Shown here: positions 1,120-5,696 of the stretch, piece by piece
Position numbering within the stretch: position 1 is the first letter of the stretch
Layout of the letters: each line of letters starts with the position of its first letter
IMG/VR virus record: IMGVR_UViG_2778261541_000003
From: a virus
Lineage: Duplodnaviria; Heunggongvirae; Uroviricota; Caudoviricetes
Length of the DNA: 8,059 bases
Strand: one strand, 5' to 3'
Position numbers and translations under genes: made by a program
Notes under the pieces: generated by a model
The model's database searches: none
What the model was told of the DNA's origin: nothing
Seen by the model: the letters and a program-made list of their open reading frames with translations, nothing else

Positions 1120-1188
1120 AGTATGCCTCACCGTGTGCTTGACATCAATGACGCACGGTGTGACAATTGTTTTGCCCCACGGTGGGGC
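1120..1188. promoter_or_regulatory. Divergent promoter/operator region between the mnt-like and arc-like genes
   Basis: Plus strand: -35 TTGACA 1139-1144, 17-bp spacer, -10 GACAAT 1162-1167. Minus strand: -35 TTGATG (rc of 1143-1148), 17-bp spacer, -10 CATACT (rc of 1120-1125). 15-bp perfect palindrome GCCCCACGGTGGGGC at 1174-1188 sits at the predicted rightward start site and shares the CCACGGTGG core with the P22 Mnt operator as I recall it. Inverted 7-mers CACCGTG (1129-1135) and CACGGTG (1154-1160) flank the overlapping -35 elements. Confidence 0.5.
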
Positions 1189-1202: not shown

Positions 1203-1370
1203 ATGCAAAAAGCAAAAGAGATGTGTCAACGACGAGTTCGTTTTCCGGACGATGTGAAGTTAGCTATTGAAAGAAATGGCGAAAAAGAATGCCGAAAGTT
1301 CAATACAGAGATTATCTATCAGCTGAGGAAAGTGTATGGACTCACTGGTGAGAAGAATAGCGTGGCATAA
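1203..1370 (+). CDS. arc: Arc-like ribbon-helix-helix transcriptional repressor (55 aa)
   Basis: ORF track 1167..1370 starts at TTG; in-frame ATG at 1203 has AAGGAG (1190-1195) 7 nt upstream. RRVRFPDDVKLAIERNGEKECRKFNTEIIYQLRK resembles the P22 Arc RHH fold (FNLRWPREV...ENGRSVNSEIYQRV). Size and position (immediately upstream of ant) match arc. Confidence 0.75.
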   Translation: MQKAKEMCQRRVRFPDDVKLAIERNGEKECRKFNTEIIYQLRKVYGLTGEKNSVA

Positions 1371-1442
1371 AACAGCGAAGCCCAACGGTGGCCAGACCGT
1401 CAGGGCTTCAGTATCGTAAAACTACGTATAGGAATTAACGAC
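1367..1442 (-). ncRNA. Candidate sar-like antisense RNA covering the ant ribosome-binding site
   Basis: Minus-strand sigma70-like promoter (-35 TTGATA, 17-bp spacer, -10 TATACT) predicts a start near 1441-1443. The transcript would be antisense to the ant SD (AGGAA 1430-1434) and end at a minus-strand hairpin GAAGCCC...GGGCTTC (1377-1409) followed by GCUGUUUUAU. Predicted length ~75 nt, comparable to P22 sar (~68 nt, from memory). Confidence 0.5.
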
Positions 1443-2387
1443 ATGACGAGTATAGCAACAGCGGTATCTACTATCAACGTGCCATTCCACGGCGCAGAAC
1501 TTTATGTTGTCAATCACAACGGAGAACCGTACACCCCAATGAAACCTATCGTTGAAGGCATGGGTATGGATTGGGCTTCACAGTTTACGAAAATGAAGCA
1601 GCGGTTTAAAACCTGCATTGTGAAAATCACAATGCAGCTTCCTGGGGATGAACAGCGCCGTGAGATTATTTGTTTGGCACTTCGCAAACTTGCTGGCTGG
1701 TTGCAAACCATCAGCCCTAACAAAGTCCGCCCTGAAATCCGCGACAAGGTAATCCAGTATCAGGAAGAGTGTGACGATGTTCTCTACGAGTACTGGACTA
1801 AAGGCCATGTGGTTAACCCACGCAAAGCTAAAAAGGCGTTGCCGGGTAAAATAACCACTGAACAGCAGGAAGCCATTAAACAACTCGTCATGAGTCGCGG
1901 TCAGTCTCTGCCAAAAGAAAAACAGGCTAAGGCGATGATCACCATGTGGTCGTCACTGAAATCTCATTTTGGCTGTTCGTACAAAGAAATTGATGAAGAT
2001 CAATTCGCCGAAGCGTTGTCTCTTGTTGCTCGGGTTCCGCTTGAAGGGGAGCATCTCCCTGCTGGATCTGCATCAGAGAATGATGAAGTGGCAGTCAAGA
2101 TGTTAGATGCGCTTCGTGAGGCAATTAAAACACAGACAAAATGTTATGGTTATCCGCTGAAGCCCGGCTACCGCAGTCTGATTCATTCGCCGTCTGGTGT
2201 TCTCGGCCTGACGGAGAACTCACTGCTGATGAATCTGCTTAACCAGTTACAGGACGACGGGCACGATGTATCGGGCGCGGCGGCGGAGCTGACCACCATG
2301 TTCTGCTACATCGTCGGTGTGAGCAAATGCCTGCGTGATATCCAGACCCACGCGGAGTACATCAACGACAAGGCTGGGTTCTTCTGA
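1443..2387 (+). CDS. ant: Phage antirepressor (Ant; P22-antirepressor-like N-terminal domain plus conserved C-terminal domain)
   Basis: 314-aa ORF; AGGAA 8 nt upstream of ATG. Follows arc as in immI. N-terminal region (...LAGWLQTISPNKVRPEIRDKVIQYQEECDDVLYEYWTKG) resembles the P22 antirepressor N-domain family as I recall it. C-terminal ~80 aa are shared with two other genes in the window. Confidence 0.88.
   Translation: MTSIATAVSTINVPFHGAELYVVNHNGEPYTPMKPIVEGMGMDWASQFTKMKQRFKTCIVKITMQLPGDEQRREIICLALRKLAGWLQTISPNKVRPEIRDKVIQYQEECDDVLYEYWTKGHVVNPRKAKKALPGKITTEQQEAIKQLVMSRGQSLPKEKQAKAMITMWSSLKSHFGCSYKEIDEDQFAEALSLVARVPLEGEHLPAGSASENDEVAVKMLDALREAIKTQTKCYGYPLKPGYRSLIHSPSGVLGLTENSLLMNLLNQLQDDGHDVSGAAAELTTMFCYIVGVSKCLRDIQTHAEYINDKAGFF
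1449..1477 (-). promoter_or_regulatory. Candidate sigma70 promoter for the sar-like antisense RNA
   Basis: -35 TTGATA = rc of 1472-1477; 17-bp spacer; -10 TATACT = rc of 1449-1454. Lies inside the first codons of ant. Confidence 0.5.
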
Positions 2388-2418
2388 CGGGCGGCGGCAC
2401 AGGGATGTGCCTTTAAAT
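2157..2418. repeat. Inverted repeat copy A (~260 bp, ~97% identical to rc of 3882-4141)
   Basis: Direct comparison: 2157-2418 matches the reverse complement of 3882-4141 with a handful of substitutions (e.g. cagtctgattcat vs cagcctgattcac; atcaacgacaaggctggg vs atcagcgacaaagcagga). Covers the last ~77 codons of ant plus its terminator. Confidence 0.9.
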
Positions 2419-2422
2419 AATT
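2396..2422 (+). terminator. Intrinsic terminator downstream of ant
   Basis: Hairpin GGCACA-GGGA-TGTGCC (2396-2411) followed by TTTAAATAATT. Confidence 0.55.
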
Positions 2423-2533
2423 CTGTACAGATTGCAGACTGTGGGTGAATAGCGTACTATTACCTCAAGGGTAAGAAAGCATTTTTAATCTTCCCTTCAA
2501 AACGCGTCCTGTAGCCAAACATGGGAGGACGAA

Positions 2534-3166
2534 ATGAGAACAAATACAACAAGAAAAGCGATGCCATACATTATCCCAGAAGCAGATTTCGATAGAAAAC
2601 TGAACATGTCTGAGAAGAACACTAGTCACACCGAAAGCTACTTAGCGAAAGGTGTGGTTGATTTCGTTCTTCCGGGATTCACAACACCTTATGGTTATCG
2701 CCTTGTAAAATCTTGTAATGGCGATCATTACAGAATGATTACTACCAGCGATACTCCAGAAACGGTGTATGCGGTTAAGTTAATCTTTCGGGAAGATATC
2801 GTCGAAGCCAAAAGAACATGTACGCAGATCATGGTATGGCGTACGCCTAATGTTATTCATGACCGTGCTGTTCATGGTTTGCCTCAGATTTTTTTTCAGT
2901 TCTTCCTAGAGCAATATGCGATCGTTGTATCTGATGAGCAACAAACAATCGATGGGAGGAGATTCTGGGAAAGAATGATTTCTTGGGCTATAAACACCCC
3001 GGGATATAATGTATACGTTTCAGATGGCTCTGAAGAAGATAGACCTCTTAGCTTCATGACATCATGGGATGATTTCTATAGCCAGTGGGCTGATTTCTGT
3101 TGGGGCAGTGATAAAGATGTGCATACCCACAGACTACTGGTTATAAGCAAAGATAAACTGCATTAA
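2534..3166 (+). CDS. Hypothetical protein (210 aa), cassette gene, no recognisable family
   Basis: ATG at 2534 with GGGAGGA SD 5 nt upstream; stop TAA 3164-3166; visibly lower GC than the flanking ant genes. Convergent with the 3187-3630 gene, sharing a bidirectional terminator. Confidence 0.7.
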   Translation: MRTNTTRKAMPYIIPEADFDRKLNMSEKNTSHTESYLAKGVVDFVLPGFTTPYGYRLVKSCNGDHYRMITTSDTPETVYAVKLIFREDIVEAKRTCTQIMVWRTPNVIHDRAVHGLPQIFFQFFLEQYAIVVSDEQQTIDGRRFWERMISWAINTPGYNVYVSDGSEEDRPLSFMTSWDDFYSQWADFCWGSDKDVHTHRLLVISKDKLH

Positions 3167-3169
3167 TAG

Positions 3170-3188
3170 AAGCCCGCGGCGCGGGCTT
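3170..3188. terminator. Bidirectional hairpin terminator between convergent cassette genes
   Basis: AAGCCCGC-ggc-GCGGGCTT perfect 8-bp GC-rich stem at 3170-3188, followed by TTCTTCTTCTTC on the plus strand; overlaps the stop codon of the minus-strand gene. Confidence 0.55.
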
Positions 3189-3630
3189 ATTCTTCTTCTT
3201 CATCATTAAAAAGCGGATTGTTGTTTCCATCTGATGAAAGGAAAGGTATGTGTTCTCTTGAAAATCCAACAATGACAATTTCATTATCATTTTTTGCATA
3301 ATGAATGCATTCATTAGAATGCATTCCGCCAGGGTTGAAATTTAAGTTAATGGTATAATTCTTAAATGTGTTTGGATACCATGTTGGCCCACAATGATAA
3401 TGCCAATAATTCTCTTGCTCATAATTGTCTGAGCCGGGAATTTTATCATGGTTATCATCAACCCACGAGGGCTTGTTTTTTCCAACAAGCGCCCTTCCAT
3501 TGGCAACATCCTCTAAAAACCTTTGTATGATTTTTATTTCATCATCAGTAAGGAAAGGTCCGTCTACAGCGAAAGGGGTGTTGCTTTCCCCATGTAGAAA
3601 ACTATTAGATATTCTAATGTTAAACTTCAA
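3187..3630 (-). CDS. Hypothetical protein (147 aa) with acidic C-terminal tail, no recognisable family; possible toxin or effector partner of the upstream small ORF
   Basis: ORF track 3187..3630. Start is TTG (rc of 3628-3630) with AGGAG SD 6 nt upstream; no in-frame ATG until residue ~103. Ends ...NDEEEE. Contains YWHYHCGPTWYP. Confidence 0.65.
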   Translation of the reverse strand: MKFNIRISNSFLHGESNTPFAVDGPFLTDDEIKIIQRFLEDVANGRALVGKNKPSWVDDNHDKIPGSDNYEQENYWHYHCGPTWYPNTFKNYTINLNFNPGGMHSNECIHYAKNDNEIVIVGFSREHIPFLSSDGNNNPLFNDEEEE

Positions 3631-3650
3631 GGAAAACTCCTGATGTGCTT

Positions 3651-3818
3651 CTATTTGGAGCGAAATGCCGCCTTGAAGTCGCTAAAAGATGTTCCTGTCT
3701 GGTAAACCATATCCTTGTCGCGCTCTTTGCTTGCGCGACCAAGCATAACTTTTCCAATGACATCCCAGCATTGCTTGGCTTGTTCATTGTGCTGAGTACG
3801 ATTTTTCAACGCTGTCAT
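3651..3818 (-). CDS. Small hypothetical protein (55 aa), first gene of a two-gene minus-strand operon; not in the ORF track (below its length cut-off)
   Basis: Hand translation of minus strand from ATG at 3818..3816: MTALKNRTQHNEQAKQCWDVIGKVMLGRASKERDKDMVYQTGTSFSDFKAAFRSK, stop at 3651-3653. Strong AGGAGG SD (rc of 3825-3830) 6 nt upstream. Stop lies 20 nt before the SD/TTG of the next gene. Confidence 0.45.
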   Translation of the reverse strand: MTALKNRTQHNEQAKQCWDVIGKVMLGRASKERDKDMVYQTGTSFSDFKAAFRSK

Positions 3819-3874
3819 ATCGCGCCTCCTTTACCTTTAAGGTAATATTACGCGAATCTACATCACATCGCCAA
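3819..3874 (-). promoter_or_regulatory. Candidate sigma70 promoter with palindromic operator for the 3651-3818 / 3187-3630 operon
   Basis: Minus strand: -35 TTGGCG (rc of 3869-3874), 18-bp spacer, -10 TAATAT (rc of 3845-3850), immediately followed by perfect 15-bp palindrome TTACCTTTAAGGTAA (3831-3845) over the predicted start site, then AGGAGG. Confidence 0.5.
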
Positions 3875-3879
3875 TGATT

Positions 3880-3903
3880 ATTTTAAAGGCACATCCCTGT
3901 GCC
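3880..3903 (-). terminator. Intrinsic terminator downstream of the second antirepressor (inside the repeat)
   Basis: Hairpin at 3888-3903 (GGCACA-loop-TGTGCC) followed on the minus strand by TTTAAAATAAT. Confidence 0.5.
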
Positions 3904-4141
3904 GCCGCCCGTCAGAAGAATCCTGCTTTGTCGCTGATGTACTCCGCGTGCGTCTGGATATCACGCAGGCATTTGCTCACACCGACGATGTAGCAGAACA
4001 TGGTGGTCAGCTCCGCCGCCGCGCCCGATACATCGTGCCCGTCGTCCTGTAACTGGTTAAGCAGATTCATCAGCAGTGAGTTCTCCGTCAGGCCGAGAAC
4101 ACCAGACGGCGAGTGAATCAGGCTGCGGTAGCCGGGCTTCA
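3882..4141. repeat. Inverted repeat copy B (partner of 2157-2418)
   Basis: Reverse complement matches copy A; covers the last ~77 codons of the second antirepressor plus its terminator hairpin. Confidence 0.9.
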
Positions 4142-4568
4142 GTGGGGCGCTGTATTCTTTTTTGTCTTCCAGCTTGATCGCCTCCATAATGGCGGGCATG
4201 AAGCCTGACAAGACCTTCTCCACTTTTGTTTCTTGTTGTCTTAAACGTTTCTCGCATTCAATGAAGTAGCGTCGCACCTGGCGACCTTTTTCGTTACGCT
4301 CGACCATCGCCAGCTCTTTGGCTGTATCAAGGGTGAGGTGGTACTCTTTGCGGTTGTGGCCGCCTCTACCAGATGTTTGCTTTCCCAAATTGGAAAGCAA
4401 AATATAGTCTTGATTTTCAATGAATTCGTATTCTGATATGCGATTTGTAATCCATGCTGCAAACACCTTTTTAACACCTAAAAAAGCGTGCAGATCGCGG
4501 GCATTACAAAGTAGGGCTGTTTCGTTAGATATAGTGCCGTTGAATACGGGGATGAGTTGAGCGTTCAT
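3912..4568 (-). CDS. Phage antirepressor, second copy: different N-terminal domain (Bro-N/ORF6N/Rha-like, tentative) fused to the same C-terminal domain as Ant
   Basis: 218-aa ORF; ATG at 4568..4566 with GGAGA SD (rc of 4576-4580). N-terminal part (...[33 protein letters not shown]...[32 protein letters not shown]) resembles phage antirepressor N-terminal families. C-terminal 77 aa are ~97% identical to Ant (1443-2387). Confidence 0.88.
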
Positions 4569-4596: not shown

Positions 4597-4804
4597 CACC
4601 ACCGCTGAGACCAATCAGATGGTGGTGAACTGAACGGAGTTGGTCTTACCGGCCTAAGTGGTACCGGCGTCCTTTCGGACCCCCATTCAGCCCACCATAA
4701 TTCTGGCATGACTGTGCTATACGCATAAAAAAACCACGTCTGGCGTGGTATGCGCCACTTAGTAATCCGGGAGACCAATCCCGGCACTGGATTTTGCCAG
4801 TGCC
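4597..4804 (-). other. Hairpin-rich untranslated leader upstream of the second antirepressor
   Basis: H1 at 4597-4627: CACCACC-g-CTGA-[gaccaa]-TCAG-at-GGTGGTG. H4 at 4767-4784: CCGGGA-[gaccaa]-TCCCGG, same hexaloop. H5 at 4783-4804: GGCACTGG-attttg-CCAGTGCC. No convincing ORF in this ~400 bp (track ORF 4596..4928 rejected). Confidence 0.45.
4726..4749 (-). terminator. Candidate intrinsic terminator or attenuator within the leader (minus strand)
   Basis: Minus-strand RNA ACCACG-CCAGA-CGUGGU followed by UUUUUUU (plus-strand A-run 4727-4733). Sits ~160 nt upstream of the second antirepressor start codon. Confidence 0.45.
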
Positions 4805-4839
4805 CGATTACTATGGCACAAGAGGAGTGCAATGTAAAT

Positions 4840-4967: not shown

Positions 4968-5696
4968 ATGGAAGTTTTCTGGATAGTTGTTGGTGTGGTT
5001 GCGGTGATTATTTACGTTATCAACCAGAACAAGACTAAGATCTCTGATCGTACGGTCGTTAATCATAACAAAACGATAAAGACCGAAGATGGGGAGATAA
5101 CGATTAATCGTACACAGGTGATAGAACACACCTCTACTCAGTTTCAAAAAACTGGAGGTAATGCGCCTAATATTTCCGCACCTCCTGCTTATGATAGTGC
5201 GGTAATCCAGACATATTATAAACAGCAGGAGTTAGCAAAAGAGAGGCAACTGATTCAGCCAAAGCCGTTTACAGCTGAGCTTCCACCTGGAGTGTCAACG
5301 CGTCCGGCATATCATGGAAGATTCCCTGGTGATGACATATCGTCTCAGTCATCTAAAAAAGCACCTCAGGCAGTATCAGAGCCAGCAAGAATACCTTCTG
5401 TATCGCCGCCAAAAGAAGAATCAGCTAACAGAGTTTCAAGTGGTAGCAAGCAGTGCTTGCGATGCAGAATAAACCTACCATATGAAAAATTCAGGAAATC
5501 GTCAAAAAATCCAGATGGATTGACTAAGTGGTGTGCAAGGTGTCTCGATGGCCCAAAGAATACACGCCATATGAAGTGGTGCCCAATTTGTAATGTCCGC
5601 AGAAAACGAACAAGCTTTTACCCTAATAATCAAAATGCGGATGGCTTAATGGCATGGTGCAAAACGTGCTGGGACGAGCACAAAGCGAAACGATAG
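4968..5696 (+). CDS. Membrane-anchored protein with Pro/Ser-rich linker and C-terminal tandem CxxC-N20-WCxxC (zinc-ribbon-like) motifs; function unknown
   Basis: 242-aa ORF; GAGG 7 nt upstream of ATG. N-terminal TM helix MEVFWIVVGVVAVIIYVI followed by NQNKTK (positive-inside rule suggests a cytoplasmic C-domain). Two Cys motifs: CLRCRINLPYEKFRKSSKNPDGLTKWCARC and CPICNVRRKRTSFYPNNQNADGLMAWCKTC. Terminator follows. Confidence 0.75.
   Translation: MEVFWIVVGVVAVIIYVINQNKTKISDRTVVNHNKTIKTEDGEITINRTQVIEHTSTQFQKTGGNAPNISAPPAYDSAVIQTYYKQQELAKERQLIQPKPFTAELPPGVSTRPAYHGRFPGDDISSQSSKKAPQAVSEPARIPSVSPPKEESANRVSSGSKQCLRCRINLPYEKFRKSSKNPDGLTKWCARCLDGPKNTRHMKWCPICNVRRKRTSFYPNNQNADGLMAWCKTCWDEHKAKR

Follow-up and report, generated by a model that had tools for sequence, protein, structure and literature searches.

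Phage P22 restrains its antirepressor gene ant with sar, a small RNA whose accepted mechanism is pairing at the ant ribosome-binding site (PMC7968456). Does a related unit overlie the start of the ant gene in IMG/VR virus record IMGVR_UViG_2778261541_000003, an 8,059-nucleotide (nt) stretch of viral DNA that was analyzed over its whole length and is called the window here? An initial annotation, made from the letters of the DNA, had proposed that a minus-strand promoter in the first codons of ant fires a small antisense RNA across the ant ribosome-binding site. The results described below indicate that an E. coli prophage very probably carries a sar gene in this interval, as the cis-antisense RNA part of an immI cassette like that of P22. 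P22 sar itself was studied by Liao et al. (1987), Wu et al. (1987) and Schaefer & McClure (1997), as cited in PMC2629481, and small-RNA sequencing during P22 infection detected the RNA (PMC13397905). Repression of ant translation by such an RNA, about 69 nt long, is known for P22 only (PMC7968456, PMC13397905).

The predicted promoter and RNA antisense to the ant leader

The minus-strand promoter TTGATA-N17-TATACT that the initial annotation had placed in the first ant codons was found at 1477..1449, covering nt +7 to +35 of ant (the coordinates of all features are collected in Table 1). The two hexamers of this promoter, designated Psar, are 17 base pairs (bp) apart, with the -10 hexamer TATACT at 1454..1449, and the consensus score is 10/12 plus the TGn element. 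Only two sites in the 8-kb window reach 10/12 plus TGn, namely Psar and the Pant-like promoter, which faces Psar from a distance of about 270 bp in convergent orientation. The number of promoter-like sites in the whole window was not above that of shuffled sequences (15 sites vs 16.5 +/- 4.6), and scans of a 1-kb region returned two promoters vs 1.4 and two terminators vs 1.0 in shuffles, which is not significant standing alone. The combined evidence of the two 10/12 plus TGn sites, the fold of the RNA and its Rfam match exceeds chance.

The Rfam covariance model of sar (RF00262) matched the minus strand at 1441..1374 from end to end (model positions 1-68 of 68) with a score of 45.2 bits and E = 7.2e-7. 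When the 77-nt minus-strand RNA was folded, its energy was -23.7 kcal/mol (z = -2.98), a stability equaled by 2 of 200 shuffles. Both the minimum free energy and the centroid folds of the predicted RNA contained two hairpins. In hairpin I, nt 1-5 of the RNA pair with nt 26-30, and the anti-Shine-Dalgarno motif occupies nt 9-14 between the two arms. Hairpin II is specified by GAAGCCCAACGGTGGCCAGACCGTCAGGGCTTC at 1377-1409 in the spacer between arc and ant; the base of its stem is GAAGCCC...GGGCTTC, and the minus strand continues from it as GCUGUUUUAU. A folding calculation had been proposed for this very segment, and it returned a 13-pair stem-loop. The single bulged U in the stem comes from A1384, where the related Escherichia phage TL-2011b has C. 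On the plus strand, no U-tract follows the hairpin (the sequence there is AGUAUCGUAAAAC), so that arc-ant transcripts should still pass it.

The initial annotation had described the RNA as about 75 nt long, antisense to both the Shine-Dalgarno sequence and the start codon of ant, and ending at a hairpin and U-tract in the arc-ant spacer. The predicted unit retains the hairpin in the spacer and the complementarity to the Shine-Dalgarno sequence, and three details were revised. The U-tract overlaps the stop codon of arc. The expected length becomes 70-74 nt, since P22 terminates 4-5 nt past the stem. The start codon is probably not covered: G1442 is the sole suitably spaced purine and P22 sar starts at ATG-1, so the 5' end of the RNA probably lies one base short of the ATG.

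The arrangement was compared with P22 record NC_002371, in which arc lies at 14861-15022, sar at 15090..15021, the sar terminator at 15021-15058 and Psar at 15097..15125, with ant starting at 15091. In both phages, Psar covers ant nt +7 to +35, with its -10 hexamer at +7 to +12, the 5' end of sar is at ATG-1 and the 3' end is at the arc stop codon. The extended -10 sequence TGC-TATACT, the stem base GAAGCCC/GGGCTTC and the segments AGTATAGCA and ATGAnnAGTATAGCA are identical, and the two phages share the two-hairpin RNA as well as the insertion of an mnt-arc-ant gene set between virion genes. The window promoter is closer to the consensus than that of P22, both in the -35 hexamer (TTGATA vs GTGTTA) and as a whole (10/12 vs 8/12). 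On the other hand, the 5' hairpins are only about 45% identical. The distal terminator stem and the loop have been replaced relative to P22, with distal differences that include compensatory changes, and the U-tract is UUUU in the window and UUU in P22 (CUUU at the same place). Each RNA would pair with its own target at -50 to -55 kcal/mol, whereas cross-pairing between P22 and the window gave -6 to -10 kcal/mol. The carriers differ as well, that of the window being an epsilon15/phiV10-like E. coli podovirus and P22 a Lederbergvirus. The resemblance to P22 sar, which the initial annotation had proposed, was borne out by the RF00262 match, the equal geometry, the flanking genes and the family comparison presented below. 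Every defining feature of the sar family (RF00262) that can be tested on sequence was found at the window locus.

Variation and mosaicism of the unit among relatives

The family comparison drew on 80 viral contigs with Ant relatives, together with P22, CUS-3, YYZ-2008 and Oslo, which gave 30 distinct spacer sequences. Each variant was folded singly and without an alignment, as MAFFT misaligns the 5' hairpin across types. The same two minus-strand hairpins were found in all 30 variants, and the folds of the other variants held a UUCC/CUCC-type motif at the same place as the anti-Shine-Dalgarno motif of the window. Among the 28 variants folded both ways, the mean fold energy was -28.9 kcal/mol for the sar strand vs -20.5 kcal/mol for the ant-mRNA strand. 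G·U pairs, which would turn into A·C mismatches on the mRNA side, accounted for 116 of the 664 predicted pairs in the 30 variants (17%). In the distal half of hairpin II, each position showed 4-5 types of canonical pair; hairpin I was similar, its stem being maintained via compensatory changes. RNAalifold applied to the MAFFT alignment recovered hairpin II alone, with double (compensatory) changes at 4 of its 11 pairs; this limitation to hairpin II was due to the misaligned 5' hairpin.

The promoter was equally persistent. The -35 hexamer, the 17-bp spacer and TGn-TAnnnT are retained in each of the 12 distinct ant 5' ends, and the -35 hexamer has the form TTGAT[AT] in 10 of them. The TGn-TAnnnT element does not vary, although the protein shows I/L/V and S/T changes: ant codon 4 is ATA, TTA or GTA, with A always at the wobble position, and the Ala codon is always GCA. 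Insertions and deletions among these 5' ends are multiples of three, with both hexamers shifting together. Taken together, the comparisons indicate that the structure of the minus-strand RNA and its promoter are under selection, in addition to the Ant protein. Psar would be a clean natural case of a promoter fixed at wobble positions within a coding sequence.

The Rfam sar score was 44.8 bits for TL-2011b and 84.6 bits for CUS-3, and the window falls far below CUS-3 because its distal terminator stem and loop have been replaced. Units resembling sar that score under the threshold also adjoin ant in two other phages, the Stx-associated lambdoid YYZ-2008 (29.5 bits) and Oslo of Salmonella (24.2 bits). 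They have the same hairpins, a GCUGUUUUUA tail and the promoter TTGATT-17-TAAACT/TATACT. Judged by such features, the sar family extends beyond the Rfam cut-off.

CUS-3, whose sar is with those of other P22-like prophages among the closest known counterparts, resembles the window in its 5' hairpin and ant leader (91% identical) and has an identical promoter. Unlike the window, CUS-3 has a P22-type terminator hairpin and is without an upstream arc. The window becomes similar to CUS-3 (92%) only from about position 1396 onward, halfway through hairpin II; this position is the end of the CUS-3 'boundary sequence bsq2' and is a mosaic joint inside the sar gene. A further mosaic-joint locus was noticed in another contig (L003, 2057-2538). 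At least seven types of 5' hairpin and ant leader and at least four types of terminator hairpin are combined differently across loci, and crossovers may take place at the conserved GAAGCCC/GGGCTTC stem base.

Duplex energies were -50 to -56 kcal/mol for each RNA on its own target and -6 to -32 kcal/mol on other types, and among the sar types compared only those of the window and CUS-3 cross-pair. It is conceivable, and in our judgment rather unlikely, that sar is split into non-complementary, trans-acting specificity classes, shuffled against the terminator types through recombination within the RNA gene, in which the sar of a prophage would silence only an incoming ant of the same class. If this were true, sar would be a diversifying immunity determinant like plasmid incompatibility RNAs, and the window copy would represent one class, common to CUS-3, beside an antirepressor controlled by a C4-type RNA.

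The terminator hairpin also resembles an operator. Its plus strand at 1380-1394 (GCCCAACGGTGGCCA in the window, GCCCCACGGTGGCCA in TL-2011b) is similar to the Mnt-operator-like palindrome GCCCCACGGTGGGGC at 1174-1188, and the window holds 3 operator-like matches with two mismatches or fewer vs 0.34 expected. A functional link between hairpin and operator was rejected. Loci of one type (L068) combine this operator with a hairpin of another kind; another locus (L026) has the distal stem and loop of the window, and no CACnGTG-type palindrome was found in that locus; and four of the bases in common are part of the stem base, which is conserved universally. The resemblance is probably a coincidence or a recombination scar.

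Proposed mechanism and competing explanations

From the biology of P22 (PMC7968456, PMC2629481, PMC12111858), we infer that Psar is active and that its RNA is produced, pairs with the mRNA and blocks ant translation. A sigma-70 extended -10 promoter in ant codons 3-12 would fire leftward. Its transcript, about 70-74 nt long, would begin near G1442 and end at the hairpin and the U-tract that overlies the arc stop codon. This RNA, fully complementary to the arc-ant spacer, would expose the anti-Shine-Dalgarno motif in the loop of hairpin I. By pairing with the arc-ant mRNA it would occlude the ant ribosome-binding site and limit the synthesis of the antirepressor. The effect would be greatest on transcripts beyond Arc/Mnt control, such as read-through from the late virion operon.

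Several observations count against the assignment to sar. The Rfam score is just about 2 bits over the gathering threshold (45.2 vs 43), and the terminator is weak by rule, with four U's that begin 4 nt after the stem. None of the variants folds less stably than the window copy (-23.9 kcal/mol for sar), which, unlike its relatives, folds just as well on the mRNA strand (-23.6 kcal/mol). Conservation of the -35 hexamer is confounded with that of the T-I-N residues of the P22_AR_N domain. In addition, the Prokaryotic Genome Annotation Pipeline (PGAP) puts the ant start at GTG 1479, 36 nt downstream of ATG 1443, in the chromosome of E. coli OkiPb01683, which holds a 100%-identical copy of the module. 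With that start, Psar would be upstream of the coding region and not inside it. The TL-2011b record starts ant at the ATG, and ATG 1443 is favored by the Shine-Dalgarno sequence 8 nt upstream, by the alignment of the product with P22 Ant from Met1 and by the in-frame insertions and deletions among relatives.

The facing arrangement of Pant and Psar, the two strongest promoter-like sites of the window, would also suit transcriptional interference, in which polymerases from the two promoters collide or occlude each other and the RNA product is secondary. Such interference needs no structured RNA, whereas the hairpins are kept via compensatory and G·U changes with an anti-Shine-Dalgarno motif in a loop, and the mechanism accepted for P22 is pairing at the ribosome-binding site (PMC7968456). 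We consider interference improbable as the main explanation. Interference and RNA pairing are not exclusive, and interference may contribute.

A second alternative assigns the hairpin to the plus strand, as an attenuator, processing site or stabilizer of the arc-ant mRNA, and regards the minus-strand promoter as a by-product of the Ant N terminus. The near-equal fold energies of the two strands of the window copy and the overlap of the -35 hexamer with the conserved T-I-N codons fit this view. However, the plus strand lacks a U-tract after the hairpin, and in the family as a whole the minus-strand folds are favored by about 8 kcal/mol, with 17% of their pairs being G·U. The TGn-TAnnnT element is held at wobble positions through amino-acid changes, and the strand-specific Rfam model matches the minus strand. 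A plus-strand role is therefore very improbable. Least credible of all is a decayed sar homologue without function in the window prophage: an Rfam score at the bottom of the range, the weakest fold among relatives and the A1384 bulge absent from TL-2011b would agree with decay, but the promoter is nearer to the consensus than that of P22, all genes flanking sar are intact in the window, and several independent contigs and genomes carry this same sar allele. The sar assignment, with pairing at the ant ribosome-binding site, is the reading that we retain.

The immI cassette, its carrier and a second antirepressor module

The genes around the predicted sar unit follow the order of a P22-type immI cassette, with an mnt-like gene, Pant, a palindromic operator, an arc-like gene and ant, and we identify the locus as a complete cassette of this type (mnt, Pant, arc, sar, ant). 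PGAP names the mnt-like gene 'Arc family DNA-binding protein'. The arc-like product is 33% identical to P22 Arc in BLASTP, the arc DNA is about 42% identical, and the TL-2011b record labels the counterpart gene as Arc-like repressor. The ant product, aligned from Met1, has 40% protein identity with P22 Ant in BLASTP. The arc-ant spacer is 72 bp long. Inverted CACCGTG/CACGGTG motifs were observed at 1129-1135 and 1154-1160, on either side of the -35 hexamer of Pant (window 1125-1165). This pair may be the Arc-type operator of the window cassette, in a layout unlike that of P22 Oarc.

Table 1. Positions of the features described in the text (window coordinates unless a locus is named)
Feature	Position	Strand	Basis or remarks
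mnt-like Arc-family repressor gene, 143 amino acids	651..1082	-	Pfam Arc PF03869, E = 1e-14; divergent from Pant
Pant-like promoter TTGACA-17-GACAAT	1139..1167	+	consensus scan; aligns with P22 Pant
Mnt-operator-like perfect palindrome GCCCCACGGTGGGGC	1174..1188	strandless	aligns with P22 Omnt GGTCCACGGTGGACC
arc-like repressor gene, 55 amino acids	1203..1370	+	PHROG Arc-like repressor, E = 3e-5; stop TAA 1368-1370
Short U-tract UUUU	1369..1372	-	4 nt past stem, overlapping arc stop codon
Predicted sar-like antisense RNA, ~70-74 nt	1370..1442	-	5' end G1442 by P22 homology; 3' end in U-tract
sar hairpin II, terminator stem-loop	1377..1409	-	13 pairs, one bulged U, loop CUGGCC
sar hairpin I, 5-pair stem GUCGU/ACGAU	1413..1442	-	large loop with anti-Shine-Dalgarno UUCCUA
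ant Shine-Dalgarno TAGGAA	1429..1434	+	read from sequence; 8 nt before ATG
ant antirepressor gene, 314 amino acids	1443..2387	+	P22_AR_N domain, Pfam PF10547, E = 9.6e-45
Psar extended -10, TGC-TATACT	1449..1457	-	within ant codons 3-5 (S-I-A)
Psar -35, TTGATA	1472..1477	-	5/6; within ant codons 10-12 (T-I-N)
AntA/PHROG-377 antirepressor gene	4568..3912	-	directly downstream of isrK/C4
C4 antisense RNA (Rfam RF01695)	4702..4618	-	61.2 bits
isrK RNA (Rfam RF01394)	4803..4727	-	67.7 bits; terminator 4749..4733; promoter-like site 4838..4810
Sub-threshold sar-like units	L086 1138-1204, L085 1146-1210	-	beside ant in YYZ-2008 and Oslo

The best phage match of the window is TL-2011b, with 95% identity over 59% of the length, and the downstream part of the window matches phiV10-like (epsilon15-like) podoviruses. 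The best phage matches are thus TL-2011b, phiV10 and other epsilon15-like podoviruses, not P22-like phages (Lederbergvirus). The genes flanking the cassette include those for a T7-gp14-family core protein and a phiV10-type tail fiber. On these matches, the carrier is classed as an epsilon15/phiV10-like (TL-2011b-like) E. coli prophage. In the OkiPb01683 chromosome, the module has virion-core/ejection-protein genes on one side and a tail-fiber gene on the other, which is the relative position of the 'ant moron' in P22-like phages (PMC2629481). The module was present at 80% coverage or more in 38 of 5,426 complete E. coli genomes. The inspected records (TL-2011b and OkiPb01683) annotate no RNA gene at the locus, and a literature search on the immI region of TL-2011b found nothing.

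The cargo of the window differs from that of TL-2011b at 2400-3900 and 4968-5696. The first of these regions has open reading frames (ORFs) at 2534-3166 (plus strand, PHROG 1349) and 3187-3630 (minus strand, PHROG 5954), of unassigned function, in place of the YafO-toxin region of TL-2011b, and a strong GC-rich hairpin terminator at 3170-3188. The ORF at 4968-5696 (PHROG 6762) has C-terminal matches to endonuclease VII and Lar-like zinc fingers.

A second RNA-controlled antirepressor module was observed on the minus strand at 4803..4618, within 3.5 kb of the sar unit. TL-2011b carries the same pair, sar plus C4/isrK units. By these assignments, the prophage has two units for antirepressor control, one of the P22 type (sar) and one of the P1/Gifsy type (C4/isrK). 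C4/isrK, as in immI of the P1/P7 type, is like sar in that a small phage RNA restrains an antirepressor gene. However, C4 is cut from the transcript of its own target and pairs with upstream a'/b' sites, unlike a convergent cis-antisense RNA, and it is unrelated to sar in sequence and structure. Lambda OOP RNA and IS10 RNA-OUT resemble sar in being short, structured and convergent and in pairing with the 5' or ribosome-binding region of their targets (PMC5415839, PMC3134472). Both belong to unrelated families with other targets and outcomes: OOP leads to RNase III cleavage of cII mRNA, and RNA-OUT is directed at the transposase ribosome-binding site.

From the comparisons above, the sar of the window is an unannotated, diverged member of a well-known system, and the locus opens no new question on antirepressor control. 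Its main value is for annotation, since the GenBank/RefSeq records of the TL-2011b-type prophage list no RNA gene here. For the biology of these phages, the locus shows that the complete P22 immI circuit, including its antisense RNA, enters unrelated temperate phages as one block, and that the cassette is a widely mobile 'moron' not tied to one phage type.

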